Shown here: positions 8,501-25,034 of the stretch, piece after piece
Position numbering within the stretch: position 1 is the first letter of the stretch
Layout of the letters: each line of letters opens with the position of its first letter
Source: a virus
Reading direction: 5' to 3' (one strand)
IMG/VR virus record: IMGVR_UViG_3300023174_000058
Coordinates: 32,001-96,000 of that record
Length of the DNA: 64,000 bases
Made by a program: the position numbers and the translations under genes
The notes under the pieces: generated by a model
What the model saw: only the letters and a program-made list of their open reading frames with translations
What the model was told of the DNA's origin: nothing
The model's database searches: none

Positions 8501-8544
8501 AAAATGGGGTGGGGAGGGGGCTAGGCAGACGCGCAGGGCCTTTT
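8501..8544. repeat. 44-bp dyad element copy 1 (degenerate right half)
   Basis: AAAA-N12-GGGGCTAGGCAG-N12-TTTT. Confidence 0.75.
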
Positions 8545-8559
8545 TTTCAGCCCCCCAAT

Positions 8560-8603
8560 AAAAGGCCGGAAACCCCGGCCTAGCCCCCCGTCGCAGCCCT
8601 TTT
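8560..8603. repeat. 44-bp dyad element copy 2 (degenerate left half)
   Basis: AAAA-N12-CGGCCTAGCCCC-N12-TTTT. Confidence 0.75.
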
Positions 8604-8678
8604 ATTTTCGGCAATAGGAAACCCCCCGCTCCAGATAGGCAACGGGGGGCAGCCCTAAGATAGTGTTAGCCTTGCGAC

Positions 8679-9764
8679 TTACTTCTTGGCCTTCTTGCTA
8701 CCGCCAAGGAGATCGACAACGTGCTGCTTAACGCTCTTGCCGTCCACAGTCAACTTGTGCATTTCAAGGATCAGGCCCATGATAGCGGGCGACTTGCTTG
8801 CATCGGTGTAAAACTTCATGCCCGCCTCGCTGGGCAGACGGAGGAAGAAACGGAGGACGTTATCACGCTCCTCGACCGGCATATCCTTGGAAACACGCCC
8901 GCTGGCAAGAACCTTGTCAACAAGGGCGGTGTATTCACCCAGTTTGTAACCCTTCATGCCGTCGAAACGACCGGAGAGAATATCGTCAACGGAGACAACC
9001 CGCTCCAGATTCTTGATATAGTCACGCGAGGCAAGCGCAGCCTCCATGCCGATATAACCGCTGGCGATGTTGTAATACACATCCAGCCGCGTCTTGAAAT
9101 CGTCGCCTTCAAGGATGCCCGCCTTCGTAACGGTATCCGAAAAACGCTTCCACGAACGGCGGGAGGGATAAATCTTGTTAGGCTCAAACTCCCCCTTGTG
9201 CTCCAGATGCGCGCTCTGATCGTTAATAAAGTCCACAATCAGGGGATGAATGTTACCGGCGCGGCCATAATCCAGCCAATCGCCCACAGACGGTTCAATG
9301 TCGAAAGCGGTCCAGCGGTCCAGTTCGGCCGGGTCCATGTCGTTAACCGCGTACTGGGCACCGTGCGTGCCGCCGTTCACAGCGGCGAAAATAAGCGTCT
9401 CAGGGTGCAGACGATGACCGTTGATCGTACGGGAATCCGTCAACTGGAAAATGCCCTGACGGACCTCAGTGGTGCCGCGATCCACCTCATCCAGAAAGAG
9501 GACAACGGGGCGTTCGCACGCTTCCTTGAACCAATCCGGGGGGTTCCAAGAGGTACGGTTGCCGTCGATGACGGGCAGACCCACAAGATCGCCCTCAGTC
9601 ATCTGCGAGACACGGCGCTCGACAACCGGCAGACCACGCTTCGCCGCAAACTGATAGACCAGTTCGCTCTTGCCGATACCGTGCCGCCCGCGCAGCATGA
9701 TAGGATGCTTGGCGTCCGCGATAAGGGAAACGAACGAGTTAAACGTCTTGAAGTCGATAGCCAT
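8679..9764 (-). CDS. MoxR-like AAA+ ATPase
   Basis: Walker A GRHGIGKS, Walker B LFLDEVDR, MDPAELDRW; start MAIDF at 9764. Confidence 0.88.
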   Translation of the reverse strand: MAIDFKTFNSFVSLIADAKHPIMLRGRHGIGKSELVYQFAAKRGLPVVERRVSQMTEGDLVGLPVIDGNRTSWNPPDWFKEACERPVVLFLDEVDRGTTEVRQGIFQLTDSRTINGHRLHPETLIFAAVNGGTHGAQYAVNDMDPAELDRWTAFDIEPSVGDWLDYGRAGNIHPLIVDFINDQSAHLEHKGEFEPNKIYPSRRSWKRFSDTVTKAGILEGDDFKTRLDVYYNIASGYIGMEAALASRDYIKNLERVVSVDDILSGRFDGMKGYKLGEYTALVDKVLASGRVSKDMPVEERDNVLRFFLRLPSEAGMKFYTDASKSPAIMGLILEMHKLTVDGKSVKQHVVDLLGGSKKAKK

Positions 9765-9938
9765 TACCTTACCCCTTTTTGGTGACGCTCCATACGTCAA
9801 CCGTTTGGAGAGAATAACCTAAGTCGCTGCCCTATGCAACAACTTTTTTTGTTCTATCGGTAGAGTGGGCCTCTCCTGCATCCCGCTCAACCGTGAAAGG
9901 CAATATACAGGAGGCGGGCGATCCCGTCAAGCGCTAAA

Positions 9939-9982
9939 AAAAGGCTAGGCGGCAGGGGCTAGCCCCCCAACCCTGCCCTTTT
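9939..9982. repeat. 44-bp dyad element copy 3
   Basis: perfect core 9955-9966; leftward TTGACG-17-TATATT promoter. Confidence 0.9.
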
Positions 9983-9995
9983 TTGCGGGGCAGGA

Positions 9996-10028
9996 AAAAG
10001 CCCGCCCCCCATTTCGGGAGAGGCGGGC
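9996..10028 (-). terminator. intrinsic terminator after VWA-peptidase gene
   Basis: GCCCGCC stem-loop followed by TTTTT on the minus strand. Confidence 0.6.
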
Positions 10029-10043
10029 AGGGTTCCTGTGCTA

Positions 10044-11255
10044 TTAGTTCAGTTTCTTCTTAATGGGGATGATACGCTCGCCGTTTCGGAAGTATGGATT
10101 TTCCGCACCATTAAGGTCGGTCATCCACATACGGCGGCACTTGGAGGGTTTAGGCGCGGGAGCCATCATATCAGTCAGGACGATATGCCCGTCAAAGGTG
10201 CCAGCCTTGTTGACATACTCAGTCGGGGCGTCGAAATCGGTGCCGCCCATCATAACGCGGGTTGCCTTAGCCCGCTGGCCCTTCTTCCATTCATACACAA
10301 GGGTAGGCTCCACACGGGTATCGAACGGAATGACGGTAAAGGTTGCCAGTTTGGAAAGACTGTTAAGTTCGCCAAAGAACGCTTCAAGCAGTTCATCCGA
10401 AACGCTGCCGCTCTGGTCAATCGAAATGGCGATATGCGCGGAGCGGTTCGACTTCTTGCCGGGATGGATGTAAGGGAAACGCTTGTTGATACGTTTCACC
10501 GTGCTGGACTTGTGCGAACGCTGTGCATTACCAACGAACATACGGAGGACGGCTTTCCAGTCAATCGTACCATTAATGAAACGCAAAATCTCCTTCCGCA
10601 TATCATGCGGCACGCTGCCCCAACCGTTGCCCCCCTTGTTGTTGGCTTCCTCTGCGGCACCCTTCATAATCTCGCGCAGACGCTCCTTTGCCATAGCCTT
10701 GACTTCTTCCGGCACGTTGCCCTCGCCCCAGCCGTCGTGCGAGTCCATGTTACCGCACGAGCCATCGCAGGTGGGACCGTCGCCGCCATCCTCGCCGCTG
10801 GCATGGTTGCCGTCGCACTTACCGCCCTTTTCGTCCTGCTTGTCCTTCTCCAGCCGCTTATAGTAGTCCTCTGCGGTCAAACCATCGGGATAGTTAAACT
10901 TCTCAGGCATAAGGGCAAAATCGGGCAGTTCACCCTTAAGATGGCAGTTAATGGACAGATCGGTAGCAAAGTTCCAACGCTTACTGATCTTCTTGCCATC
11001 GGGCGAACGTCCGAGACAATGATCGAGCATAAGATGGTAAAGTTCGTGCTTTAGAACACCGCGACGATGGTTGTCGGGCAACTTCTCAAAAAACTCCTCG
11101 TTATAGACCATCTCGAAATGACCGTCATCCATAACGCGCACGCCAGCGGTAGGGACCGACTTGGTGGGACGCTTGGAAATATGACGCGACACGGCAGCGA
11201 AAAAAGACTCGTTCAAGAGCAGACGGAACATATCGTTTTCAAGATCGTAAGCCAT
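10044..11255 (-). CDS. DUF2201-type putative metallopeptidase with C-terminal VWA-like domain
   Basis: HELYH zincin motif; MIDAS-like DQSGS, GGTDF, LTD; adjacent to AAA+ ATPase. Confidence 0.85.
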   Translation of the reverse strand: MAYDLENDMFRLLLNESFFAAVSRHISKRPTKSVPTAGVRVMDDGHFEMVYNEEFFEKLPDNHRRGVLKHELYHLMLDHCLGRSPDGKKISKRWNFATDLSINCHLKGELPDFALMPEKFNYPDGLTAEDYYKRLEKDKQDEKGGKCDGNHASGEDGGDGPTCDGSCGNMDSHDGWGEGNVPEEVKAMAKERLREIMKGAAEEANNKGGNGWGSVPHDMRKEILRFINGTIDWKAVLRMFVGNAQRSHKSSTVKRINKRFPYIHPGKKSNRSAHIAISIDQSGSVSDELLEAFFGELNSLSKLATFTVIPFDTRVEPTLVYEWKKGQRAKATRVMMGGTDFDAPTEYVNKAGTFDGHIVLTDMMAPAPKPSKCRRMWMTDLNGAENPYFRNGERIIPIKKKLN

Positions 11256-11328
11256 CGCAGACCTCGCGCTGCTCCATGCAGCGTGGAGAGACTATACAGC
11301 AGACGGGGGGCGGTTGTCAATAGGGGAA

Positions 11329-11372
11329 AAAAGGCGGGGCCGTGGGGGCTAGCCCCTGCCAGATAACCTTTT
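11329..11372. repeat. 44-bp dyad element copy 4
   Basis: perfect core 11345-11356; leftward TTGACA...TATAGT promoter. Confidence 0.9.
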
Positions 11373-11394
11373 TAGGCTACCGGCAGGGGTAGGA

Positions 11395-11997
11395 CTAGGG
11401 CATAATACCCGTTACATAATGATTATAGTTTCCACCCTTTTCGCTTCCAATCAGGAGACGTTGGGGCATGGTGACTTTCTTAACAAGAACTTCTGGGTCA
11501 TAATCAATATCGTGAGAAGGTGCTTCAATCGTAAAGTTAATCCGATTGTAATAATCATGTTCCTTTGACACGCTATTTGGATCCTTTAGGCGCATAAGCA
11601 TGCGGCTAATGGGCACGGAAACAGTAATCTCCTCAGCCCCACCATCAAAAGAAACAAGGCTAGCATGAACCGATCGGGCAATAAAACTTTCATTAACGTA
11701 TCTGGGTTCAAGTTTGACACGCTTTGAATACTTCAGATTGCGCGCTTCAATAAAGCCACAGTTAGCAACCCAATCAAAATCCTTTACCATGCAAAGTTTA
11801 AACTTCTCAGGACTCCAATAATCTTGGACTCGGAGAAGAGCGCCAACGCCCAGACCAACCTTGGCAAACCCTTCAATAAGGGCTTTGCGTTCCTTTGGAG
11901 TATGGGTTAACACAATGTTACGCTGGTCCTTGAAATCGGGGCAATCCGGCTTTCGGTGTCCAATATTCCTACAGTATCCGCAAAGACGCTCAGACAT
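11395..11997 (-). CDS. hypothetical protein with N-terminal CCHC zinc knuckle
   Basis: CGYCRNIGHRKPDC; start MSERL at 11997 downstream of the element-linked promoter. Confidence 0.75.
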   Translation of the reverse strand: MSERLCGYCRNIGHRKPDCPDFKDQRNIVLTHTPKERKALIEGFAKVGLGVGALLRVQDYWSPEKFKLCMVKDFDWVANCGFIEARNLKYSKRVKLEPRYVNESFIARSVHASLVSFDGGAEEITVSVPISRMLMRLKDPNSVSKEHDYYNRINFTIEAPSHDIDYDPEVLVKKVTMPQRLLIGSEKGGNYNHYVTGIMP

Positions 11998-12068
11998 AAT
12001 AGCCTCGCCGCTCTCCATGAGCGTAGGCAGACAATAGCATGGGAACCTCACCGTGTCAAGAGGGACAA

Positions 12069-12112
12069 AAAAGGACCGCTGAAAGGGGCTAGCCCCCTGC
12101 CCAACCGGTTTT
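12069..12112. repeat. 44-bp dyad element copy 5
   Basis: perfect core 12085-12096; leftward TTGACA-17-TATTGT. Confidence 0.9.
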
Positions 12113-12134
12113 ATCCAGCGGGAGGGGACCATCA

Positions 12135-12227
12135 TTAACGCTTCTTGTTTTGGTTACGGGTGCGGCGCTTCTTACTCCCGATCTTTCGCCTACCCTTGCG
12201 CGGACGGTTCTTTGCTGGCCAACCCAT
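12135..12227 (-). CDS. 30-aa Arg/Lys-rich peptide
   Basis: MGWPAKNRPRKGRRKIGSKKRRTRNQNKKR*; strong AAAGGAG RBS. Confidence 0.65.
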   Translation of the reverse strand: MGWPAKNRPRKGRRKIGSKKRRTRNQNKKR

Positions 12228-12277
12228 GACTAACTCCTTTTGTTAGGTCTATTCTTATCGAGCAAACTACTTATAGT

Positions 12278-12886
12278 ATGGAGAACACAATGGAAACTAC
12301 CAAAGTTTGTAATGGATGTAAAGAAGAAAAGTTACTTGTCGAATACAATAAAGACAAAAGCAAGAAAGACGGATACCAAACACGGTGTAGAGCCTGTAAG
12401 CAAGTTTCCGATAATGCTTGGAGGCAGGAGAACAAAGACAGCGTAAATGCTAAGTCGAAAGCATGGCGTAAGGTCAATAGGCAGCGAGCGCAAGAAAACA
12501 TTAAACGCTGGCAGGAGGAGAATCCAGAACGATACCGCGAAATCCAGCGCAAGCATTGGCGTAAGTCTTACGAAAAGAACAAGTTCAAGAAGCTTGTTTC
12601 CGGTGCTATTAAACGTTCACTCAAAGGAATATGGAAGTCAAAAGCCATCTTTGAAAGACTTGGCTATACCGTCGATCAACTCAAAGAGCATCTAGAAAGC
12701 AAGTTCACAGAAGGCATGACTTGGGAGAACCACGGCGAATGGCACATAGATCACATAACGCCACAGTCTTGGCTACCATTCTCCAGTATCGAAGACGAAA
12801 ACTTTATAAAGTGCTGGTCGCTAAGTAACCTTCAGCCTTTATGGGCTAAGGATAATATCAGCAAGGGTAACCGCTATGAAGGATAG
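12278..12886 (+). CDS. HNH homing-type endonuclease
   Basis: N-terminal CxxC..CxxC; WHIDHITP, LQPLWAKDNISKGN; paralog of 23947..24552. Confidence 0.85.
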   Translation: MENTMETTKVCNGCKEEKLLVEYNKDKSKKDGYQTRCRACKQVSDNAWRQENKDSVNAKSKAWRKVNRQRAQENIKRWQEENPERYREIQRKHWRKSYEKNKFKKLVSGAIKRSLKGIWKSKAIFERLGYTVDQLKEHLESKFTEGMTWENHGEWHIDHITPQSWLPFSSIEDENFIKCWSLSNLQPLWAKDNISKGNRYEG

Positions 12887-12907
12887 GAGGCATACCGGAC
12901 CTCCCTT

Positions 12908-13126
12908 CTATGCGATAAACTTCCAACGCCTATTATCTGCTGCAATCTTACTTACCCCCTCTTTTGAGAGAGGGGCATCACCGTGGGTAAGACCAATCAT
13001 CTTAACCGTATCGGCGTCATAGAACTTTGGATCACACTCTATGTATTCTGCGATAAGATAATAAAAGTTCTTACCCAATCCATAGAAGCACCAGATATCG
13101 CCTACCTGTGGAGTACGGCTGCTCAT
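12908..13126 (-). CDS. GDI-family small protein
   Basis: PQVGDIW ... FIA. Confidence 0.8.
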   Translation of the reverse strand: MSSRTPQVGDIWCFYGLGKNFYYLIAEYIECDPKFYDADTVKMIGLTHGDAPLSKEGVSKIAADNRRWKFIA

Positions 13127-13308
13127 GCTACCCACCTGTAGTACTGAAAACAGGAGATATCGGTTTCATCCTCGCCCCAAGCATTATCCAGCCACAGAAT
13201 AAAATAACGATGCCCCCACTTGCTGTACCTACGCACGATGCTAGTCACCATAAAGTGTGCCTGTGAGCCGGGGGAATAGTAGATGTCGCCTACCCGTGGA
13301 TCATACAT
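13123..13308 (-). CDS. GDI-family small protein
   Basis: PRVGDIY ... WVA. Confidence 0.8.
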   Translation of the reverse strand: MYDPRVGDIYYSPGSQAHFMVTSIVRRYSKWGHRYFILWLDNAWGEDETDISCFQYYRWVA

Positions 13309-13529
13309 TAGGCGAGCCTCTCACAATCTTTTAAAACACTAAAATCAAGTGACCACTCCCCATAGCCAGTATCCCAGTAGTTCGACTCCATTACAAGCAC
13401 TTCGTAATGCGGGTAGTGCTTTTCAGGCAGCCGCTTACCTACCAGAAGCACCGCATAGTTTGCAACCCCTTGCATTGGTTGCCGCATCTGGTACCGCAAA
13501 ATGTCGCCCGTGCAGACCGTTGAAATCAT
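13308..13529 (-). CDS. GDI-family small protein
   Basis: CTGDIL ... RLA. Confidence 0.75.
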   Translation of the reverse strand: MISTVCTGDILRYQMRQPMQGVANYAVLLVGKRLPEKHYPHYEVLVMESNYWDTGYGEWSLDFSVLKDCERLA

Positions 13530-13566
13530 GGAAGCACTCTACCAGAGAAGGGAGTGACTGTCAAGG

Positions 13567-13643
13567 TGGCGGTCCCGGCTGGATTTGAACCAGCGTAACT
13601 CTGTTTAGAAGACAGATGCCTAATCCGCTAGACTACGGGACCG
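13567..13643 (-). tRNA. tRNA-Arg(UCU)
   Basis: cloverleaf; anticodon arm TCTGT-CTTCTAA-ACAGA; GGTTCAAATCC T arm; encoded CCA. Confidence 0.92.
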
Positions 13644-13734
13644 TAAACAAGAACAAAAAGGTGCCCCAAGCCAGTTATTCCTTCTTAGGAGCAGGCTGCA
13701 TAGGCGTTGCGCAAACGAGGAACCTATGCATTAT

Positions 13735-13809
13735 TGGTGGGGAAGGTGGGGCTCGAACCCACAACTAACGGCTTAAAAGGCCGCTACTCTACCATTGAGT
13801 TACTTCCCC
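13735..13809 (-). tRNA. tRNA-Lys(UUU)
   Basis: GCGGC-CTTTTAA-GCCGT anticodon arm; GGTTCGAG; CCA. Confidence 0.92.
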
Positions 13810-13816
13810 GAAAAGT

Positions 13817-13902
13817 TGGTGCCCAAGGCCGGACTCGAACCGGCAAGCCTGTTACGGCGGAAGATTTTAAGTCTTCTGTGTATACCATTTCACCACTTGG
13901 GC
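13817..13902 (-). tRNA. tRNA-Leu(UAA)
   Basis: GAAGA-CTTAAAA-TCTTC; long variable arm; CCA. Confidence 0.92.
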
Positions 13903-13905
13903 AAG

Positions 13906-13996
13906 TGGTCGGCCCGCTAGGAGTCGAACCTAGTCTAGGCGGTCATCTACCGCAAAACGATTATAAGTCGTTCTCGCATTGCCGATGCACGGGCCG
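13906..13996 (-). tRNA. atypical tRNA with UAU anticodon (Ile-AUA reading) and long variable arm
   Basis: 7-bp acceptor CGGCCCG/CGGGCCG, AACGA-CTTATAA-TCGTT, GCGGT/ACCGC variable arm, GGTTCGACT T loop, ACCA end. Confidence 0.75.
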
Positions 13997-14002
13997 ATTA
14001 TT

Positions 14003-14332
14003 CTATTTTTCTAGTTCATCGTGAAGTTCACTATGGCAATTATGACAGACCATAATGCACTTGTCAAGTTCTTCTTTTATCTTCTCCCACTTGCGAGCAT
14101 GGGAACCAGAGATCCCAAAGTCTTTTTGGGAAGGGTCGAGATGGTGAAAGGCTAGGGCACGCTTACTCTTGCAGTACCCGCACCTCTCACATTTCCCGCC
14201 TTTATATTCGACACACCGATCTTTCAAGTCGTGTCGCTTACGGTTTGACATACAGGAGTTACAGACAGTCCTAGTATGCCCTTTCTTTCTATCATAGTCA
14301 AACGATCTTTTACACTCTTTACACTCAGTCAT
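14003..14332 (-). CDS. HNH endonuclease
   Basis: CERCGY...LAFHHLDP...CIMVCHNCHSELH; upstream of the tRNA cluster. Confidence 0.85.
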   Translation of the reverse strand: MTECKECKRSFDYDRKKGHTRTVCNSCMSNRKRHDLKDRCVEYKGGKCERCGYCKSKRALAFHHLDPSQKDFGISGSHARKWEKIKEELDKCIMVCHNCHSELHDELEK

Positions 14333-14446
14333 GTGGGAGCCTCCTATGCTCTAACTAGTGCGAGAGCGGAGATTGTTCCCACATTTCTAACCGCTAGGCT
14401 ACAGGACCATCGAACAAAAACATCTTACCACATCACCGGCAGGACT

Positions 14447-14602
14447 TCAAGAAGTTTCTTTTGAGGCAATAAAGTCACGCAGTACCTTACGCAGATCCAT
14501 CAGCCGATCCTCGTCGCTCTCGTCAAAGCGCCCAGTAAACAGCACCTCGTTGATTGCTTCGAGCAGTACGATGGCAAGATCCCTGTCTACTTCGATGTTC
14601 AT
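14447..14602 (-). CDS. small acidic hypothetical protein
   Basis: MNIEVDRDL...; preceded by TTGACA-17-TAGGAT. Confidence 0.55.
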   Translation of the reverse strand: MNIEVDRDLAIVLLEAINEVLFTGRFDESDEDRLMDLRKVLRDFIASKETS

Positions 14603-14634
14603 GGAGAGCATCCTATCACTTGTGCGAGGGGTTG

Positions 14635-14748
14635 TCAAGCGGGCCGTGGAGTCGAACCACGCAGCCCCAACCCTCTAACAGTTAGAGGTTATGTTAGCGG
14701 ATGGAACTCAGTCCGCCAGTTACCAAGTACCCCGTACCGCCCGCTTGA
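14635..14748 (-). ncRNA. tRNA-like structured RNA candidate
   Basis: 10-bp terminal stem TCAAGCGGGC/GCCCGCTTGA, T arm CGTGG-TTCGACT-CCACG, three further hairpins; starts at the predicted TSS of a sigma70 promoter. Confidence 0.6.
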
Positions 14749-14791
14749 TGAACGTATAGTACCCCGGATCGTGTCACTTGTCAACGAACAT

Positions 14792-14835
14792 AAAAGGAGG
14801 TAGGAGAAGGGCTAGCCCCCCTGCCCCCCGCTTTT
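14792..14835. repeat. 44-bp dyad element copy 6
   Basis: AGGGCTAGCCCC core 14808-14819; leftward TTGACA-17-TACTAT. Confidence 0.9.
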
Positions 14836-14859
14836 ATTGCGGGGGTGGGGTTGGTCGTG

Positions 14860-15609
14860 CTACTGCTGCGGCTTCTCGCGGTACTTCTTAATAACGCGCT
14901 CAGGCACCGCAACCTGTTCGCCAGTAGTAATCCACAGGACATTAATCATGCGGGAGCCCTTACCGCCCCGTGACTTGCGGCTGATCTCCTCCTTGTGTTC
15001 CACAACCATACCAATACGCTCCTCGCTATGTGCCAATCCCTTGCCATAGGTAGGATCATGGCGGTATGAACCCTTGAACGGGTGACGGAGCATCACCTGA
15101 TCGCCAACATCGTACACAATATCGCGCTTAAGTTCGCGGTACTTGCTACCCTCGTGCCCCATAGCAACACGGGCAAACATCTTCCAATGGAGGGGACGGT
15201 CAAGCCAACCAAGGGCTTTTGCCTGTTCCTGACTGTGGTGTATCCCATCACGATCATAATACCACCACATATTCTGTGAGCAGTTGGTATACATCTCCTG
15301 CATATCGGGGCGGGCGTCATACCATTCAAAAAACTTCTTATCAAAAGCGTCCCATTCAGGGGAATGATCCGCTGCAAGGTTTTCCAGCGTCCACTTTTGG
15401 CTAGGGGTAATCAGCCCGTTCGTCTCAAAGTAGGTCTTGACGGATGGCACAAAGTCTCTGTTATAGTGGCTCTTGCTCTGGGCTGCAAACTCCAGCAGTT
15501 GCGGGATCGTATACTTTTCGTTGCCCTGCTCGTCAAACAGGAAGTCACGCTCGCGGATAGGGAACACAAGGTCGATCTCGTAGGGCTTCACTTTCTTGGT
15601 ACGCGGCAT
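14860..15609 (-). CDS. hypothetical protein with C-terminal GDI/SH3-like domain
   Basis: start MPRTKK with AAGGAGG RBS; C-terminal YDVGDQV...IGMVVE...INVLW. Confidence 0.8.
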   Translation of the reverse strand: MPRTKKVKPYEIDLVFPIRERDFLFDEQGNEKYTIPQLLEFAAQSKSHYNRDFVPSVKTYFETNGLITPSQKWTLENLAADHSPEWDAFDKKFFEWYDARPDMQEMYTNCSQNMWWYYDRDGIHHSQEQAKALGWLDRPLHWKMFARVAMGHEGSKYRELKRDIVYDVGDQVMLRHPFKGSYRHDPTYGKGLAHSEERIGMVVEHKEEISRKSRGGKGSRMINVLWITTGEQVAVPERVIKKYREKPQQ

Positions 15610-15679
15610 CGTTGCCTCCTTCGCTCTCCATGAGCGTATGCGGACTATATATGGTCCCCTGCATTGTGTCAAGCGACAA

Positions 15680-15723
15680 AAAAAGGTGTTCGGCGGGGGC
15701 TAGCCCTCCCCCAAGGGCCTTTA
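15680..15723. repeat. 44-bp dyad element copy 7
   Basis: GGGGCTAGCCCT core 15696-15707; leftward TTGACA-17-TATAGT. Confidence 0.88.
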
Positions 15724-15750
15724 ATCAATGCTTGTAAAGACACCAGCGGT

Positions 15751-16089
15751 TCATGCCTTCCCTTTGTGGTTAACATTCCCCGTAAAGGTTGCCTTTGTCT
15801 GGAAGGACACAGCGGGTTCCTTTGCGCGGAAATGCATTTGACATTGCTTGCCCGTGTTCAATCCACTAGTGGCACGCCAGTAGTCCTTGTAGGCATCACG
15901 GTCCTGTTGGGAGTTGAACTTAAGCACTTGGACCGCTGCTTGCTTACCCTCGCCAGCACTAATGCCAAGGTAACGCACCGTGTCATCGGTAGAACAATCG
16001 GGGCAGTGGTGGGAGAGTCCCCCGGCTCGACGCTTCTCGCGGGAGTGAGGGTCGAAAAGCGCGTCACACTCAATACAAACTTTACTCAT
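15751..16089 (-). CDS. zinc-ribbon hypothetical protein
   Basis: CIEC...CPDC; coupled by ATGA overlap to the GDI array. Confidence 0.75.
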   Translation of the reverse strand: MSKVCIECDALFDPHSREKRRAGGLSHHCPDCSTDDTVRYLGISAGEGKQAAVQVLKFNSQQDRDAYKDYWRATSGLNTGKQCQMHFRAKEPAVSFQTKATFTGNVNHKGKA

Positions 16090-16280
16090 GCTACGAACCT
16101 CCAACGCCTTTCACCTTGAAATACTATATGTGCACTCTTGCCATCAGTCAAGCACAAACCTTGAAAAAACTTTGCGTGGGGGACTCTTGCGTTACCTTTC
16201 AGCGGTTCCAGAAGGAGCCAATAACTCTTGACCTCCGCAAGATCGGTCCATTCCCAAATGTCACCAACCTGTGGAGTCAT
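16086..16280 (-). CDS. GDI-family small protein
   Basis: MTPQVGDIW ... WRFVA. Confidence 0.8.
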   Translation of the reverse strand: MTPQVGDIWEWTDLAEVKSYWLLLEPLKGNARVPHAKFFQGLCLTDGKSAHIVFQGERRWRFVA

Positions 16281-16441
16281 GCTACGAACCTCCACCCGGG
16301 AGTACGAGAGAGCAACATTATCTGCGTTCTCCTGCCAGATGTCAAGCTCAAAGCTTCAAAAGAATCGTGATGGAACTCTTTAGTTAGAAGCCAGTATTTG
16401 CGATCCTCAAAGCACCAGATGTCACCAACCTGCGGAGTCAT
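16277..16441 (-). CDS. GDI-family small protein
   Basis: MTPQVGDIW ... WRFVA. Confidence 0.8.
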   Translation of the reverse strand: MTPQVGDIWCFEDRKYWLLTKEFHHDSFEALSLTSGRRTQIMLLSRTPGWRFVA

Positions 16442-16647
16442 GCTACCATCCGTCCGTCGCGGGAAATCGAATCCGCGTAAACCTCGTACTTGCCCCCTGT
16501 TTCTAGCACAAGGCAGCGGGCAGCGCAAGTTTCGCTTCGGTACTGGATCGTCTCAAAAAACTCAGTTATGAGCAGATGATAGTAGCCCCAATCGCTACCA
16601 CGGGGCTTGCAGTTGAGCACCCAGATGTCCCCAATCTGTGGAGTCAC
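16438..16647 (-). CDS. GDI-family small protein
   Basis: GTG start, TPQIGDIW ... MVA; GGAGG RBS. Confidence 0.78.
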   Translation of the reverse strand: MTPQIGDIWVLNCKPRGSDWGYYHLLITEFFETIQYRSETCAARCLVLETGGKYEVYADSISRDGRMVA

Positions 16648-16850
16648 TTGTCCTCCTCCCAACCACCATAGGCACGGCCACGCTTCTTAAAATAAACAGC
16701 CGTGCGAGTACCAGCCTCAATCTCTAGCGCCTCAAACTCCCACTCAACATCGGCATAATAAGCCCGTCTCTCATCCAACAGCAGGAAGTGATGACTCTTG
16801 GGACTATTCTCAAACACCCAGACGCTACCAAGTATCGGCTTCGGGTTCAT
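16644..16850 (-). CDS. GDI-family small protein (divergent)
   Basis: PILGSVW...HFLLL...ALEIEAG. Confidence 0.7.
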   Translation of the reverse strand: MNPKPILGSVWVFENSPKSHHFLLLDERRAYYADVEWEFEALEIEAGTRTAVYFKKRGRAYGGWEEDK

Positions 16851-16890
16851 GTTGGGGATCATATCGGGGGAAGGGCTGGGTGTCAAGGGG

Positions 16891-16934
16891 TATTTGCGGA
16901 GAGGGAGGGGCTAGCCCCACAGGCGGGCAAAAAC
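16891..16934. repeat. 44-bp dyad element copy 8 (A/T arms swapped)
   Basis: perfect core 16907-16918 flanked by TATT and AAA; leftward TTGACA-17-TATGAT. Confidence 0.8.
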
Positions 16935-17210
16935 CTAAGCTACCCTGTGCCACTCATCAAGCTCAAAGTTCATGTGGATAAGACGCGTTTCGCCCGTTTC
17001 CAGTTTAAGCATTTGGAACGTCAGCCCATCATTAGGGAACCAACCCACAGTAGCGTCATCGCCATTTGGAGCTTCCACCAACACAAAGTGCCAAGTTTTA
17101 TATTCATCGCCATAGGGCACAGTCATGCTCCAGATGTCACCAACTTGGGGCATATCCTCATCGGGGATCTTCCAGAGTTCGCTATTAGGCTTCCGTCGCT
17201 TGCCCATCAT
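16935..17210 (-). CDS. GDI-family small protein
   Basis: PQVGDIW ... RVA. Confidence 0.8.
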   Translation of the reverse strand: MMGKRRKPNSELWKIPDEDMPQVGDIWSMTVPYGDEYKTWHFVLVEAPNGDDATVGWFPNDGLTFQMLKLETGETRLIHMNFELDEWHRVA

Positions 17211-17683: not shown

Positions 17684-17727
17684 AAAATGGCTATGGAGGA
17701 GGGCTAGCCCCTCCCAGCCCACCTTTT
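17684..17727. repeat. 44-bp dyad element copy 9 (between divergent promoters)
   Basis: AGGGCTAGCCCC core 17700-17711; TTGACT-17-TATTAT leftward and TTGACG...TACTAT rightward. Confidence 0.9.
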
Positions 17728-18003: not shown

Positions 18004-18327
18004 ATGGCTACCTCTAACGAGATTCTGGCTGAGATCGCGTCGTACAGCGCTGCAAATGGGCGTCCTTGCCCTGCAAAGTACCTGACCGACAAGTTTGGTG
18101 CCGATGCTGCCGATCTTATCGTCTCTCTCAAGAAGGAGGGTAAGATCTACGGTCGCCGTGGTCGCACGGGCGGTCTTGTGAGCAACGAGGCATCCCCGCT
18201 GCCGCAGGTTGACTTTAACACCCCGCAGGTTGATGCGGGCAACGACCTTGCGGCTGAGTTCGCTGCCCTTGCTGCCAAGTTGGCGGCTGAGTCGGATGCG
18301 GGCGAAGTGGCTGCGACCGGCACCTAA
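18004..18327 (+). CDS. winged-helix DNA-binding protein candidate (Rrf2-like wing)
   Basis: LKKEGKIYGRRGRTGGL resembles the Rrf2 wing motif; highly expressed-type codon bias. Confidence 0.6.
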   Translation: MATSNEILAEIASYSAANGRPCPAKYLTDKFGADAADLIVSLKKEGKIYGRRGRTGGLVSNEASPLPQVDFNTPQVDAGNDLAAEFAALAAKLAAESDAGEVAATGT

Positions 18328-18422: not shown

Positions 18423-18466
18423 AAAAGGCTAGACGACGGGGGCTAGCCCCTGCTGGAACACATTTT
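18423..18466. repeat. 44-bp dyad element copy 10
   Basis: perfect core 18439-18450; promoter-like boxes on both sides. Confidence 0.9.
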
Positions 18467-18716: not shown

Positions 18717-18717
18717 C

Positions 18718-19395: not shown

Positions 19396-19415
19396 ACGTT
19401 CCCCCCTCCCGGCAG

Positions 19416-19459
19416 AAAAGGCTGGGATGCGGGGGCTAGCCCCTCCCATATCATATTTT
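19416..19459. repeat. 44-bp dyad element copy 11
   Basis: perfect core 19432-19443. Confidence 0.9.
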
Positions 19460-19544
19460 TTCTTCTGTACTGCGATGCGGTGATGCGATACATTCCCTTT
19501 TGTCCACAGGGGACACCGGCTCCAAGCGAGCCACCGGAGAGAAG

Positions 19545-19835
19545 ATGTCTGTTTGCCTTACTGCCAATCAGAAGAAGTACCTTTCCTATTACCAGAACTA
19601 CTTCGGTAAGCACGGTGAGTTTCCTAACACCGCTGATGCTGCTCGTTATTTTGGTAAGCCGTCCACGACGGTCCTTAATGTTATTGGTGCGATCTTTCTG
19701 AAGGGTGGTTTCACGGGTGGTAAGCCCCTGACCCGCAACCTGCTTGTGGCGCACGGCGAGAGCAAGCCTCTCAATATCAGGGCAACAAAGGCTAAGAAAA
19801 ACACGCAGCAGTCTAACGCTACGCTGCACGAGTAA
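19545..19835 (+). CDS. LexA-type winged-helix DNA-binding domain protein (no peptidase domain)
   Basis: LTANQKKYLSYYQNYFGKHGEFPNTADAARYFG...AIFLKG parallels the LexA N-terminal domain. Confidence 0.65.
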   Translation: MSVCLTANQKKYLSYYQNYFGKHGEFPNTADAARYFGKPSTTVLNVIGAIFLKGGFTGGKPLTRNLLVAHGESKPLNIRATKAKKNTQQSNATLHE

Positions 19836-19854
19836 ACGGCTCCCCACCCACCAG

Positions 19855-19898
19855 AAAAGCGGTGGGCACGGGGGCTAGCCCCTCCACGCAAACATTTT
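19855..19898. repeat. 44-bp dyad element copy 12
   Basis: perfect core 19871-19882; rightward TTGACC-17-TATACT. Confidence 0.9.
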
Positions 19899-20232: not shown

Positions 20233-20298
20233 CAAGCGACACCATTACTGATAAAGTCCGGTTCTACTAACCGCCCAGTAGGGCAGAGGAGCAAGAGG

Positions 20299-20490: not shown

Positions 20491-20523
20491 TCCACAACCC
20501 CACACGGTATAGGACGCCCGCCT

Positions 20524-20910
20524 ATGGCACGCCGCATCAAAACCCGCGACTATTCGATGCTCCAGATTATCACCGGAGCAACAAAGGCGGGCGTCCACCG
20601 TGATAATGCCAAACACGCAAGCCTGACCGCTTGCAGAGGAGAAAAAAAGATGTTCGCTGCCCGCAAGAACCTTCGCCATGACCTCCAGATTGAGTGGACC
20701 CGTGACGCAGAACACGGTGGAGTCGAAGTGTTCGATGTGTATGGTGCCCGACTCCCGCAAGGCGGCTGGCATATCGTCCGCATGGACATCATCGACGAGG
20801 ATGGTATGCCCATCACCTTTAACACGATGAGTCTTTCGGAGGAGGAGCGTATTGCTATCGAGAACGCCCTCGAAGACGAGAGCGCAGGACTGTCGGCTAC
20901 CCGACACTAG
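20524..20910 (+). CDS. hypothetical protein (acidic C-terminal domain)
   Basis: 128-aa ORF; possible internal start at 20650. Confidence 0.6.
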   Translation: MARRIKTRDYSMLQIITGATKAGVHRDNAKHASLTACRGEKKMFAARKNLRHDLQIEWTRDAEHGGVEVFDVYGARLPQGGWHIVRMDIIDEDGMPITFNTMSLSEEERIAIENALEDESAGLSATRH

Positions 20911-20932
20911 AGGGTGCCCCTCCGGTTGCCAA

Positions 20933-20976
20933 AAAAGGCGGCTGCGAGGGGGCTAGCCCCTGCCCCATGCCATTTT
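20933..20976. repeat. 44-bp dyad element copy 13
   Basis: perfect core 20949-20960; rightward TTGCGC-17-TATAGT. Confidence 0.9.
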
Positions 20977-21049
20977 ATTTTGCTTGCGCTTTCGGCGGTT
21001 CCCCCGTATAGTCTACCCACGCTCGACGGTCGGGCGATGGGGTGCAACG

Positions 21050-21721
21050 GTGGCGAACGTCAAGCCTTACAACGGTAAATGGAATAAGAATAAGAAACTC
21101 CAAAAGACGCAGGGCACCGGCGCCTATAACATCATCGGTTTTGGCATCCCTGCCGATCACGATTTTACTGACGAAAACCTTGTCAAGCGTAACACCTGCC
21201 CCGGTGCGCTGGCTTGTCGCGCCGTGTGCTATGCTAAGCAGGGCGGTTATCTTTGGCCCGCTAGCATTGCGGCCCGTGCCCACAACCTCGCGCTTTCGCA
21301 AAACCCTAACTTCGTCGCGCTTATGATCGAGGATCTCGCCCGCTTCCGCAAGGTTGACACCGTGCGCGTGCATGATAGCGGGGACTTCTACTCGCAGGGC
21401 TACTTTGACGCATGGTGTTGGATTGCACGCGCCTTCCCTAACATTACCTTCTACGCCTACACCAAAAGCCTTGATCTCGACCTGTCGGGCGCACCAGATA
21501 ACTTCCGCGTGACGCAATCCCTCGGCGGCAAGTTTGACGGGCTTGTGAACCTTGGAAAGCCGCACTCCCGCATTTTCACCAGCCATGAGGACCGCACCCG
21601 CGCCGATTATGTTGACGGTAACTTGACGGATGCCTATGCAATCGAAGGGGAAACGCGCATCGGGCTTGTGTACCACGGGAACAAGGGCCTGACAGACGCT
21701 CAGAAAAAGTTCTTTCGCTAG
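21050..21721 (+). CDS. phage GP88-like protein (radical-SAM-like Cys motif)
   Basis: TCPGALACRAVCYA and RVHDSGDFYS, FYAYTKS motifs; GTG start. Confidence 0.75.
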   Translation: MANVKPYNGKWNKNKKLQKTQGTGAYNIIGFGIPADHDFTDENLVKRNTCPGALACRAVCYAKQGGYLWPASIAARAHNLALSQNPNFVALMIEDLARFRKVDTVRVHDSGDFYSQGYFDAWCWIARAFPNITFYAYTKSLDLDLSGAPDNFRVTQSLGGKFDGLVNLGKPHSRIFTSHEDRTRADYVDGNLTDAYAIEGETRIGLVYHGNKGLTDAQKKFFR

Positions 21722-21743
21722 AGTAATCCCCCGGACGCTGGAA

Positions 21744-21787
21744 AAAAGACCAGCCGAAGGGGGCTAGCCCCGCCCGCCACGGCTTTT
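21744..21787. repeat. 44-bp dyad element copy 14 (convergent junction, no promoter)
   Basis: perfect core 21760-21771 between two stop codons. Confidence 0.9.
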
Positions 21788-21808
21788 ATCGCCGGGGGGC
21801 AGAGGCTG

Positions 21809-21988
21809 TTAAATCTCGGACATCGTGTAAGCAGCCGTCCAAACACCGGGGCGTTCACGCTCACCCTTGTCGCTGTCGTAGTTAAGGAACCGGGATTCAT
21901 TCATTGAATAAACGGTTTCAATGTCCCCGTCCGCATTAAACAATGCGCTGTATTCCATACCACCAAAGATAAAGTTTACTCGACGCAT
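21809..21988 (-). CDS. small hypothetical protein
   Basis: MRRVNFIFGG... with GGAGG RBS. Confidence 0.55.
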   Translation of the reverse strand: MRRVNFIFGGMEYSALFNADGDIETVYSMNESRFLNYDSDKGERERPGVWTAAYTMSEI

Positions 21989-22091
21989 TACCCTTCCTCC
22001 GAAGAAAGCCAGAAGCCAAGGAAAATAACCGAAACAAAAATGATAACGCCGCCGATTGCCGCAATGTCGCCGCCATACATGGTAAATCCTC

Positions 22092-22325
22092 CTAGGCCTG
22101 AGCCAACGTTCCAGCCGCGATGAGCGTCTTGTATTCCATCGCCGCAAACACGATATCCTCCGCGATAAGATCCTTCAGTTTCTCAATGTCGCCGGGAGTC
22201 AGGTTGACGCGCTCGCCCATGCTGTCAATGACGCGGATATCGTCAAAATCCTTCGAGTCAGGGTTGACCGTGAAGTAGCAGTTAACGTCCCGACCATTTC
22301 GCTTGTAGATGATGAGGTTTTCCAT
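22092..22325 (-). CDS. small acidic hypothetical protein
   Basis: 77 aa; AGAGG RBS. Confidence 0.7.
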   Translation of the reverse strand: MENLIIYKRNGRDVNCYFTVNPDSKDFDDIRVIDSMGERVNLTPGDIEKLKDLIAEDIVFAAMEYKTLIAAGTLAQA

Positions 22326-22401
22326 GTTGCCTCTTAGCGCCCGCCAATGGGCAGAAGGGTGAGAGAAAGTGCGAGACTGATACTAATGCAAGCCAGTGCG
22401 A

Positions 22402-22587
22402 TCATCGGGCCCCCTTTTCACAGAGAAGATACGCCTCCTCCGGGGAAATGTCAAGCCCCTTCCGCTTACCGGCCATGCAGGACATAACCTTAAAAGCGTG
22501 CTCGTCGTTGTTGTTCATAAGATCATAAACAACCGCGCCCCACGAAATAACGATCCACGCTGCAAACAAACCCGTCAGAATCTTCAT
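22402..22587 (-). CDS. small membrane-anchored protein
   Basis: MKILTGLFAAWIVISWGAVV hydrophobic N-terminus; AGGAGG RBS. Confidence 0.6.
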   Translation of the reverse strand: MKILTGLFAAWIVISWGAVVYDLMNNNDEHAFKVMSCMAGKRKGLDISPEEAYLLCEKGAR

Positions 22588-22642
22588 CGCCCTTCCTCCT
22601 AAAAAAGAAAGTATCACCGCCTCCCCCGGATAGCAAAAAAAT

Positions 22643-22686
22643 AAAATGGTCCGTTGGGAGGGCTAGCCCCCCTTGCCTCGGCTTTT
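22643..22686. repeat. 44-bp dyad element copy 15
   Basis: AGGGCTAGCCCC core 22659-22670. Confidence 0.9.
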
Positions 22687-22702
22687 ATTGCCGGGGCTGG
22701 GG

Positions 22703-22782
22703 TTTTGTCCGAAAGTAACCATTCTGTTCTCCGCCCCCCATAATAGGGAGCAGGCAGGAATCGAACCTGCTACCGGACAAAC
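22703..22782 (-). ncRNA. circularly permuted tRNA-like RNA module candidate
   Basis: TTTGTCCG/CGGACAAA closing stem enclosing T arm GCAGG-TTCGATT-CCTGC, a loop-closed acceptor-like stem and a D-like arm. Confidence 0.55.
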
Positions 22783-22784
22783 TT

Positions 22785-22931
22785 TTAGTAGGGTTCCAAC
22801 CGGAGGTTTTCGGCGCAGCAAATCATTTCGATGCCGCTCTTGAACCGGACAAGGGCGCACTTGTAGCCCGTTGAAATGATCTTTCCCAGACCGTACAAGT
22901 GGTGACGCACAATGTCATGGTCGCGCAGCAT
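22785..22931 (-). CDS. small SH3/Tudor-like protein (48 aa)
   Basis: MLRDHDIVRHHLYGLGKII...LVRFKSG; TAATG overlap and GGAGG RBS. Confidence 0.65.
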   Translation of the reverse strand: MLRDHDIVRHHLYGLGKIISTGYKCALVRFKSGIEMICCAENLRLEPY

Positions 22932-23323
22932 TAGAGATCCTCCCCCTTCGTGTCCGCCTTGATATCACGGGCAAGGTCATCGGCGTTATAACGGTCAAAA
23001 ATATCGTCCGGGTAAAGGGTAAGCATCATGCAACGGATGGCAGGATCGGCGTTGGCTTCCTCGATCATGTCCCCGATAATCTTACGGTCGTGCTCACGGC
23101 TGTCCTCATCCTCCGGCGTCCAACCGGGGATGTGGAAATCGGCAGTAGCGTCGAGGAAGGTACGGTGCGCCGCTTCGGCATCCTTGTCCCGCGTGTCGGG
23201 GCGGTCATACAGTGCAGCCGCATGGAAAGAGCAAGCGGCATCCTCATCGCAGCCGCAAATCTCAGTGCCGGGGTGGGGGATCGTGTTCGCGCTCATCGCA
23301 TCGGCCTCCGTGGTGGGGAACAT
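22931..23323 (-). CDS. acidic hypothetical protein
   Basis: 130-aa ORF (alternative start 23296) after TTGCCA-17-TATACT. Confidence 0.7.
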   Translation of the reverse strand: MFPTTEADAMSANTIPHPGTEICGCDEDAACSFHAAALYDRPDTRDKDAEAAHRTFLDATADFHIPGWTPEDEDSREHDRKIIGDMIEEANADPAIRCMMLTLYPDDIFDRYNADDLARDIKADTKGEDL

Positions 23324-23365
23324 GGAGAGAGTATAGGGGGCAACCCTGCCGGTGGCAAGAGAAAT

Positions 23366-23409
23366 AAAATACGTTCCAGCGGGGGCTAGCCCCTCCCAGT
23401 TGGCCTTTT
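23366..23409. repeat. 44-bp dyad element copy 16
   Basis: perfect core 23382-23393. Confidence 0.9.
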
Positions 23410-23477
23410 ATTCGGGGCACTAGAAAAGCCCGCCCCTTGCGGGTACGGGCCGAAGGTGCTACGCTTGACGCTTTGCG

Positions 23478-23714
23478 TTAGAGAGTGGCGAACGTTTCCG
23501 CGTAATCACGGGCGGTGTTGCGGTTCAGGGTGCGCCAACCCTCGCCAACGCTCCACACCGTCTCGAACCCCGGCTTGAGCGCAGGACGCACGCCGCCCTT
23601 CGTGTTGGCAGCGATGAACTCTGCGGGCAGGTCGCCCACCTGCACGAACGTCATCGTGCGATCTTCGCCCTTGACGGTGGTGAACGCGCAGTTGTAAGCC
23701 TTGACGATCGCCAT
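23478..23714 (-). CDS. WYL_2/DUF2693-like Sm/SH3 beta-barrel protein
   Basis: FTTVKGEDRTM...TVWSVGEGWRTLN pattern. Confidence 0.6.
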   Translation of the reverse strand: MAIVKAYNCAFTTVKGEDRTMTFVQVGDLPAEFIAANTKGGVRPALKPGFETVWSVGEGWRTLNRNTARDYAETFATL

Positions 23715-23799
23715 TTTGCTTCCCCTTGTTTGACTGGGCACCATGCCCGCCGTCGATGATGTGAATATACGCGGGAACCTTGCCGCCGTCAAGGGGAAT

Positions 23800-23843
23800 A
23801 AAATATCATCCAGTGGGGGCTAGCCCCTCCTGCCACGGCTTTT
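23800..23843. repeat. 44-bp dyad element copy 17
   Basis: perfect core 23816-23827; leftward TTGACG-17-TATATT. Confidence 0.9.
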
Positions 23844-23946
23844 ATTTGCCGGAGCGAGGGAGCGCGCACCTCCTAATCAGTGTCACCGAAGAAATAGTCC
23901 TCGTCCGTTTATTTTCTTTTTGGAATAGACGAAGACTATTTATTGT

Positions 23947-24552
23947 ATGCTAACAGAAAAGAAATGCTATGGTTGTCAAACTACCAAAACTATTACAGAA
24001 TTTGGTAATGATAAAAGAGGCGTTGGTGGATTTAAAAATTATTGTAGACTGTGCTGCACCAAACGTCGTAAACTTCATTACGAGAAGAACAAAGAGAAAG
24101 AGTTAGTAAAAGGCAAAGAATACAAAGCTGCAAATAAAGAAAAGCTAGCAGAGCTATCAAGGGCGTATCGTAAGGCAAATCCTGAGAAGGTTAAAGAATG
24201 GAAACGAAACGAATATAAACGCCGCCGTTCGATTAAGAAGAATATTGTTGAAGACAGCATCAGCCGCGCAATCAATAAAAGAGTAAAGTTCAATAGGCAG
24301 TTTGGACATTGGGAAGAAATATTAGGTTATTCCGTAGAGCAATTAATGCTTCACTTGGAAAGCAAATTCAAGCCCGAAATGAACTGGGACAACTATGGTT
24401 CATATTGGCACATAGACCACGTAAAACCTAAGAGCTGGTTTGAATATGATGCTTTGGATAGTGAGGCTTTCAAACAATGTTGGGCATTAGATAATCTACA
24501 ACCGCTTGAAGCCTCACTCAACTGCTCTAAACAAAATAGATACGAAGGTTAG
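23947..24552 (+). CDS. HNH homing-type endonuclease
   Basis: WHIDHVKP, LQPLEASLNCSKQN; AT-rich insert in the GC island; paralog of 12278..12886. Confidence 0.85.
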   Translation: MLTEKKCYGCQTTKTITEFGNDKRGVGGFKNYCRLCCTKRRKLHYEKNKEKELVKGKEYKAANKEKLAELSRAYRKANPEKVKEWKRNEYKRRRSIKKNIVEDSISRAINKRVKFNRQFGHWEEILGYSVEQLMLHLESKFKPEMNWDNYGSYWHIDHVKPKSWFEYDALDSEAFKQCWALDNLQPLEASLNCSKQNRYEG

Positions 24553-24918
24553 AAGTCATCGTCGCTACCATAACATCCATAATCTTCTGATGTTCCCCAT
24601 CCTGCGCTGGCAAGAGCATAGGCGTCGTCGCTGTAGTCAAGGTCCGCACCATAAGCAGAATCAAGTTCCTCATCGGCCTCGTCATACAGCCGCTCTTCCA
24701 TCCTGTCGGCAACGTCCTGCTTGCACAGCGCGTCCTCACACACAGGGGCACCACAGCCAATGCAGGGCTCCCCTTCGTTCAGTTCGGGGTAGTGCTTCAA
24801 CAGATCCTCGCCCATGCGCTGGCAGTCGCCGCAAACGCGGGTGCCATCGTCAAGCGCAATGGCGGCGTGCTTCTCGCACAGGTCGCACTTAGGGGCGAAA
24901 GGGATGCCAAGGGTCATG
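24549..24918 (-). CDS. Cys-rich protein with acidic C-terminus
   Basis: CDLC..CGDC..CIGC; ends DDAYALASAGWGTSEDYG; AGGAG RBS. Confidence 0.65.
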
Positions 24919-24990
24919 TCGCAGTCTCCTATCCCGTCAATCGGGCGTGAAGGGATATTGGCATGGCTTGGGCTGGGATGCAATCAAAAT

Positions 24991-25034
24991 AAAATGCTTT
25001 CGCCGGGGGGCTGGGCCCTCTTTTTTAAACCTTT
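24991..25034. repeat. 44-bp dyad element copy 18 (degenerate, island right edge)
   Basis: AAAA-N12-GGGGCTGGGCCC-N13-TTTT. Confidence 0.7.

Follow-up and report, generated by a model that had tools for sequence, protein, structure and literature searches.

A palindrome-bounded array of early-gene cassettes in a T4-like freshwater phage resembles promoter-early stem-loop arrays

Promoter-early stem-loops (PeSLs) have been described in the T4-type phages RB49/phi1, PST/T4 and nt-1/KVP40 (Arbiol 2010, PMC2839356; Comeau 2014, PMC4122927). They were proposed in 2010 to be joints for accessory-gene swaps among T4-type phages, and the authors guessed that a protein might read their GGGG...CCCC motif, a question that they left open (PMC2839356). 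Here we describe an array of small early-gene cassettes separated by a 44-bp dyad in IMG/VR contig IMGVR_UViG_3300023174_000058 (162,187 bp; completeness estimate 89%). The window, which is the whole stretch of DNA that was analysed, comprises 64,000 nt (bases 32001-96000 of the contig); all coordinates below are window positions, and labels of the form L0xx or G00x denote related contigs.

The array is a set of PeSL-type regulatory and recombination cassettes with features new to PeSLs. In the explanation that we favor, to which we assign a probability of roughly 55%, the dyads are boundary elements of a PeSL-like array, the dyad core is read by a dimeric protein, and general recombination shuffles the cassettes. 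Taken separately, the boundary and shuffling role of the dyads is highly probable. PeSLs had already been named as the closest known analog in the initial annotation of the window, and the comparisons below bear this out (PMC2839356, PMC4122927).

The source of the contig is an uncultured freshwater T4-like myovirus (match to the T4-type Gp23 capsid protein, E = 4e-62) that encodes eight tRNAs, and we found no close cultured relative of it. The array occupies an island (window 8.5-25 kb) with a GC content of 48-56%, compared with 27-39% in the genome backbone, and consists of ~16 cassettes (M1-M16). The majority of the island's open reading frames (ORFs) belong to no Pfam or PHROG family, which makes it a hyperplastic region of orphan genes like those in which PeSLs are found. 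When the island was compared with isolate phages by megablast, tRNA genes were the sole matches, and an Rfam search of the island likewise returned tRNAs only. An assembly chimera was ruled out because independent assemblies cross both island edges: ENA and Logan contigs with 99.8-100% identity include L035, which covers window positions 44-16105 and thus the left edge, and L040, which covers 23661-34552 and thus the right edge.

The dyad, its copies and its flanks

Each dyad is built around the core GGGGCTAGCCCC, a 12-bp palindrome. The window contains 15 matches to this core at ≤1 mismatch, whereas shuffled sequences gave an expectation of 0.05 and no shuffle reached 15. Eleven of these cores are perfect and four carry one mismatch; these and three degenerate edge copies were all reported in the initial annotation, and all were recovered at the positions given there. 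The edge copies, with cores at 8517 (8501-8544; three mismatches) and 8576 (8560-8603; two mismatches) on the left and at 25007 (24991-25034; two mismatches) on the right, keep their A4/T4 flanks. On each strand, arms of ~12 bp flank the core, the 5' arm being rich in G and the 3' arm rich in C. In 14 of the 15 good copies, exactly 12 nt separate the core from both the A4 and the T4 tract; the exception is dyad 16907 (16891-16934), which has a perfect core without either tract. When dyads from the window and its relatives were picked by core alone, TTTT occurred at offset 12 in 74 of 90 half-sites. The half-site profile holds 1.4-1.9 bits per core position and 0.1-0.7 bits in the arms.

Every copy of the dyad lies between coding regions. 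The absence of copies elsewhere, previously claimed for the window, now extends genome-wide, as a scan of all 162,187 bp identified no further core copy outside window 8.5-25 kb. The full 44-bp pattern, scanned against one genome per prokaryote species, gave a single chance hit, and the possibility that the dyad is a host repeat was rejected on this basis. A literature text search for the core string returned no match.

Pattern scans identified the element in one phage lineage only. Its carriers were eight contigs from lake metagenomes and, in IMG/VR, G002 and G001, the latter with 13 copies. Further carriers were reached via the winged-helix protein described below, namely L045 (17 copies), L047 (16 copies) and L048/L049. 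Across 13 non-redundant sources we counted 82 cores, 55 of them perfect and 17 differing at the outermost base alone. Divergence of the arms and neighboring genes reaches identities of 65-85%, with the core still invariant. The 12-nt spacing to A4/T4 tracts, which the initial annotation described as almost constant, holds in the window and is not universal among relatives: in L048/L049, the polarity of the tracts is inverted and they lie at 10 nt. The distance from T4 to the -35 box is 15-18 nt in G001 and G002, compared with 7-9 nt in the window. Thus, only the core is invariant across lineages, and this favors sequence-specific recognition of the core and disfavors a helical-phase-locked activator. 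The proposal that the dyad is a protein site has gained a candidate in a winged-helix protein, conserved and found together with the arrays, and has lost its phase-locked activator, which is unlikely given the varying distance and polarity. The more distant relatives L031-L034 (50-54% identity in the DUF2201 protein) lack the dyad, and no other palindrome takes its place in that layout.

Many copies that are exclusively intergenic and restricted to one phage lineage could also represent a selfish or neutral dispersed repeat, similar to a miniature mobile element and functionless for the phage. We consider this very improbable, as the core has not changed despite the divergence of arms and genes around it, the spacing is fixed, exactly one copy stands at each cassette junction, no target-site duplications accompany the dyads, and no copy occurs beyond the island.

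Outward past the T tract, each dyad side leads to either a sigma70-type promoter or a gene end, and at gene ends the flank terminates in a G run. The promoters are near-consensus (TTGACA-like, 17 nt, TATAAT-like) and fire away from the dyad, with the -35 box 7-9 nt past the T tract, or 4 nt at the aberrant copy 16907. Fourteen dyad sides score ≥8/12 as sigma70 promoters, and 12 of these score ≥9, a score reached by 1.2% of background positions. As at PeSLs, these are sigma70-like early promoters with an AT-rich patch upstream. All junction types (promoter/end, end/promoter, end/end and promoter/promoter) are present, and the core is kept in all four.

Transcription of the island is organized around two dyads. 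M1-M7 run leftward from dyad 17700 (17684-17727), a divergence point with a promoter on each side, and M8-M12 run rightward from there to dyad 21760 (21744-21787), into which M13-M16 run leftward. Dyad 21760 is thus a convergence point: a gene ends on either side of it, and it has no promoter, as the initial annotation had stated. The further statement made there, that the borders of modules and not just promoters are marked by the element, also stands. Leftward promoters lie at dyads 9955 (9939-9982; promoter of the AAA_5 gene, with the DUF2201 gene end to the right), 11345 (11329-11372; gene end to the right), 12085 (12069-12112), 14808 (14792-14835; one mismatch, gene end to the right), 15696 (15680-15723; one mismatch), 23382 (23366-23409) and 23816 (23800-23843). 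Dyad 20949 (20933-20976) provides a rightward promoter for the GP88 gene, and further dyads lie at 18439 (18423-18466) and 22659 (22643-22686; one mismatch). Sigma70-type promoters without a dyad also occur inside cassettes and in the AT-richer left flank, and a canonical terminator lies alongside the dyad at some gene ends; therefore, the dyad is needed for neither promoters nor termination.

Several cassette promoters share another small feature, a conserved 5'-leader hairpin (5-6 bp stem, loop ATGGA) located a few bases past the -10 box. It occurs at 12009-12023 (-) and 15622-15636 (-), as well as after the -10 boxes at 11291 and 20984.

Folding of dyads and gene ends

An A tract, a GC-rich dyad and a T tract in succession form the classic signature of a two-way terminator. 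Moreover, dyads stand where genes end, among them the convergent copy 21760, which has no promoter, and PeSL stem-loops have been shown to terminate (PMC2839356). These features fit an alternative in which the dyad works chiefly in RNA, terminating or attenuating transcription from both directions as an intrinsic element. The two arms, G-rich and C-rich, would fold with the core into a hairpin ahead of a U tract. At gene ends, the upstream flank would compete for the G-rich arm, and termination could then depend on whether that flank is covered by a ribosome at the nearby stop codon.

Folding energies bear on this alternative. Dyad 36-mers folded at ~-15 kcal/mol, which was not better than their dinucleotide shuffles (z between -0.9 and +1.0). 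Native pairs of left and right arms were no more stable than chimeras (-15.3 and -15.9 kcal/mol, respectively), and the arms are thus not co-adapted; that any left arm can pair with any right arm at about -15 kcal/mol would suit an RNA-level role. Counted in register, complementarity between left and right arms did not exceed the level expected from column composition. The stem in many copies stops 5-8 nt short of the T tract, and a terminator consensus scan called few dyads only. Because the dyad folds no better than shuffles and its arms are not co-adapted, a plain two-way terminator role is weakly supported at best.

A second structure, missed in the initial annotation, was found at gene ends, where the spacer and the 3' flank co-vary as the two arms of a hairpin. 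The final four bases of the core, together with the 12-nt arm, are specifically complementary to the flank beyond the tract, giving a hairpin of ~16 bp with the A/T tract as its loop. An ungapped in-register count is too insensitive for this hairpin, and folding energies relative to permuted arms were used instead. Native gene ends gave -16.25 kcal/mol and permuted ones -12.19 kcal/mol (p = 6e-6, n = 63), whereas promoter sides showed no effect. The result was repeated in independent lineages (L045, p = 0.018; L047, p = 0.002). At dyad 14808, for example, the hairpin spans 14816-14850 and has a folding energy of -20.5 kcal/mol. On the mRNA, the hairpin is strong, begins 1-10 nt past the stop codon and is not followed by a U tract. 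It most likely protects or defines the mRNA 3' end, and attenuator-like competition between this hairpin and the dyad is possible.

The position of stop codons 1-10 nt ahead of the competing flank would suit the attenuator form of the RNA-level alternative. However, the flank hairpin is the stronger of the two and is transcribed first, so it would sequester the 5' arm of the dyad. The central CTAG, which would be the loop of a terminator, is invariant; dyad 17700 lies between divergent promoters, where no transcripts arrive; canonical terminators stand next to some dyads; and in L048/L049 the arriving strand has an A run rather than a U run past the dyad. Taken together, we regard a mainly RNA-level role as unlikely, although it deserves some weight given the strand preference reported below.

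Cassette order and recombination

We compared cassettes among relatives using translated inter-dyad modules and maps of 11 related contigs. The same cassettes occurred in other orders, with gains and losses, and a core was present at every boundary. M8, M9, M10, M11 and M12 are consecutive in the window; in L045, L047, L048, L025 and G001, M12 (GP88) directly follows M8. The window order M13-M14-M15 reads M15-M14-M13 in L047, and L026 and L027 carry M15-novel-M14. Cassette M10 (ORF at ~19545-19835) is present in the window and L047 and is not found in L045 or L048, and many novel cassettes stand in for others among the relatives. Relatives thus differ by insertions, deletions and replacements at the elements, as described for PeSLs, with one exception (L035). 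The shuffling and inversion proposed in the initial annotation held in that cassette order differs among relatives with dyads at the boundaries; inversion was seen once and weakly (in G001), whereas reordering, gain and loss are the rule.

Cassette M10 (19444-19870, +) is flanked by break points in the assembly graph. Its left boundary is dyad 19432 (19416-19459) and its right boundary is dyad 19871 (19855-19898). Among near-identical strains, SPAdes and Logan contigs end at 19446 (L036 and L043) and start at 19869 (L038 and L039), and these positions are the exact limits of a 17-mer common to the two flanking dyads. A co-existing recombinant that lacks M10 and has its crossover inside the core would yield this pattern of contig breaks.

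A recent exchange is apparent in strain L035, which is 99.97% identical to the window over 16 kb. In L035:1-833, an 81%-similar block replaces window positions 16106-16962; the replaced block consists of tandem mini-protein genes, with three in place of four. The break points lie in conserved flanks outside the core. The L035 allele of dyad 16907 has A4/T4 tracts and two core mismatches. In addition, L021 and L028 differ by a 91-bp deletion, which begins 5 nt past the T tract.

In our favored explanation, identical cores and similar promoters would supply short homology for the phage's general recombination, which would excise, insert and reorder cassettes. Double-strand breaks made by HNH-type endonucleases of the island may aid this process. 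The island contains or adjoins three genes of the HNH/endonuclease VII-like type (PHROG 559/1035), and all are AT-richer than the island. The first, at 12278-12886 (+), is a free-standing endonuclease gene. Its paralog at 23947-24552 (+) is preceded by a late-type motif (CTATTTAT), and the protein has 51% aa identity to a G001 homolog that it shares with 12278-12886. The third gene, at 6661-7572 (+), lies beside the island. Both intra-island genes lie 120-180 nt rightward of a dyad.

A dedicated enzyme offers another route to the same rearrangements. Cassette 3' ends carry inverted repeats that vary in sequence, are conserved in structure and abut a conserved core, as would be expected of an attC-like site for site-specific recombination formed by the core and the structured gene-end repeat. 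Cassettes are also reordered without a change of strand, and the graph breaks exactly at the shared 17-mer. Such a site would be worked by an unrecognized phage enzyme, with the winged-helix protein as a synapsis factor or the three HNH/endonuclease VII-like nucleases as candidates. However, no profile match to a tyrosine (PF00589) or serine (PF00239) recombinase was found in the 162 kb (89% complete), so the statement that no recombinase is visible in the window now holds for these types over the whole contig. Profiles for RecA (PF00154) and Endonuclease_7 (PF02945) also had no match in the phage genome. Unlike integron cassettes, those of the island have their own promoters and lie in both orientations, and the L035 exchange breaks outside the core. 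As T4-type general recombination needs short homology only, no dedicated enzyme is required (PMC2839356). We therefore consider site-specific recombination improbable here.

Candidate binding protein and comparison with known systems

A gene predicted to encode a 107-aa winged-helix protein (18004-18327, +) is the second gene of the rightward operon starting at dyad 17700, and its product is our candidate for binding the dyad. This place in the operon, second after the two-promoter dyad, is kept in every lineage. We identified 80 homologs with 52-91% identity. The N-terminal 60 residues are highly conserved and include an invariant basic wing (GKRGRTGGL); they are followed by a variable linker and a conserved C-terminal helix. 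AlphaFold (AF2) predicted a helix-strand-helix-helix-hairpin arrangement, that is, a winged helix, with pLDDT ~80 for residues 1-60. This fold matched Rrf2-family regulators and the LexA DNA-binding domain (rmsd 2.7 Å over 64 residues; Foldseek probability up to 0.99), with matches also in the Atlas, and there was a weak sequence hint of NsrR (E = 0.09). All 9 of the dyad-bearing contigs that span the divergence point carry the gene, and none of 4 dyad-less relatives does. G001 has both the most divergent copy of the protein and the most degenerate cores (1 of 10 perfect).

A dimeric sequence-specific protein that reads the core would account for the conservation of the core, and the best candidate for it is the winged-helix protein, which is encoded in the first rightward operon. 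Acting from either side, such a protein would regulate cassettes or insulate them. We put the chance that the core is a protein site at about even; the identification of this particular ORF as the protein that reads the core is tentative, and we would wager against it rather than for it.

Residues 82-98 of the winged-helix protein (18247-18294), past a disordered acidic linker, form a strongly conserved amphipathic helix (FAALAAKLA-like). This helix may act as a tethered motif that contacts RNA polymerase or another molecule of the same protein.

Several observations count against the combination of boundary elements, a core-binding protein and general recombination. With respect to recombination, the break points in L035 lie outside the core; the junction 31-mer predicted for an M10-less recombinant was not found in IMG/VR, and the M10 deletion junction was unseen; and 31% of nucleotide-alignment ends lie ≤60 bp from a dyad, compared with 12% by chance. 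With respect to the protein, the fold-search E-values of the winged-helix ORF are weak (0.014 at best), and neither Pfam nor PHROGs recognizes it. Its co-occurrence with the dyad is circumstantial, being confounded by shared ancestry. The arms, G-rich at 5' and C-rich at 3' with low positional information, look more like a property of a single strand (RNA or single-stranded DNA) than a duplex contact surface. Finally, folding is 1.6 kcal/mol more stable on the strand by which transcripts reach the dyad than on the opposite one (13 of 19, p = 0.06), which leaves some room for a terminator role and is a point in favor of the RNA-level alternative.

The island also differs from the backbone in codon usage. 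GC content at third codon positions is 0.58-0.77 (~0.65) in island genes and 0.20-0.32 (~0.25) in backbone genes. Codons read by phage tRNAs are rare in the island relative to the backbone (AGA, 3% vs 40%; AAA, 16% vs 81%; UUA, 1% vs 45%). Four of the eight phage tRNA genes (Arg-TCT, Lys-TTT, Leu-TAA and Ile-TAT) form a cluster within an early cassette, M4 (13567-13996, -), and the other tRNAs lie at 31330-34926. This pattern suggests that the early cassettes are matched to the tRNA pool of a GC-rich host, while the rest of the genome would rely on the phage's own tRNAs. Two translation regimes in one phage bear on how AT-rich phages begin infecting GC-rich hosts.

Among the remaining genes of the island, M1 encodes an AAA_5 (MoxR-like) ATPase (8679-9800, -), and M2 encodes a DUF2201 metallopeptidase/VWA-like protein (10044-11255, -). 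This pair is GC-richer than its surroundings even in dyad-less distant relatives (L033:7000-13000), and also in L045 and L047; the GC-rich early region thus predates the palindrome. M12 encodes a GP88-family protein (PF17338; 21050-21721, +), which in most relatives directly follows the winged-helix gene. A possible 30-aa ORF, extremely basic (Arg/Lys-rich) and with a GGAG ribosome site, lies at ~12135-12227 (-) and ends at the gene-end flank of dyad 12085. The other end of the compositional range is found at 44000-52000, where genes for glycosyltransferases and sugar epimerases follow one another and the GC content is 0.25-0.29.

A more elaborate version of cassette exchange would be an integron-like system without an integrase, in which the invariant palindrome, the structured 3' ends and a winged-helix protein that pairs dyads would allow promoter-bearing cassettes, matched to the codons of a GC-rich host, to move as mini-circles between co-infecting AT-rich phages. 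We consider such a system improbable, on a par with a dedicated site-specific enzyme. Returning to our favored explanation, the small winged-helix protein is directly checkable against the 44-mer, which touches the open question of what reads the PeSL motif. This lineage is a cleaner case than PeSLs, as it offers an invariant palindrome, a fixed geometry and dozens of natural rearrangements bounded by the palindrome.

With regard to known regulators, the predicted fold of ORF 18004-18327 resembles that of the Rrf2 family (IscR, NsrR and RsrR) and LexA, and in both cases a palindromic motif is repeated ahead of many promoters of one regulon. The phage protein differs in being only 107 aa long, with neither Fe-S ligands nor a protease domain, and in having a flexible linker and a conserved C-terminal helix. 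Furthermore, the dyads lie at about -65 and at gene ends rather than over the promoter, and the ORF product is a candidate binder.

The island resembles integrons in being an array of small mobile gene units that are reordered between relatives. As with attC, each unit has at its 3' end an imperfect inverted repeat that is structured, varies in sequence and lies beside a short conserved core. Whereas integrons rely on the tyrosine recombinase IntI, the phage has no integrase. Its cassettes are self-promoted and lie on both strands, in contrast to the promoter-less cassettes of integrons, which share a single orientation, and its conserved core is a perfect palindrome common to both ends.

The likeness to PeSLs is the closest. 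Both systems combine near-consensus sigma70 early promoters and an upstream AT-rich patch with a GGGG...CCCC dyad, are located among small orphan genes where the genome of a T4-like myovirus is hyperplastic, and consist of cassettes with their own start and stop signals, with relatives differing by whole cassettes at the elements. PeSLs also yield mini-circles through recombination of neighboring elements. There is no sequence homology between the array described here and published PeSLs. Whereas the PeSL stem is variable, the dyad has a 12-bp palindrome of invariant sequence and fixed 12-bp arms; it lies upstream of the promoter, works in both directions and also occurs without a promoter. 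It has no folding signal of its own, and a separate co-varying hairpin is found at gene ends. Lastly, the whole array forms a GC-rich compositional island, and a candidate cognate winged-helix protein travels with it.

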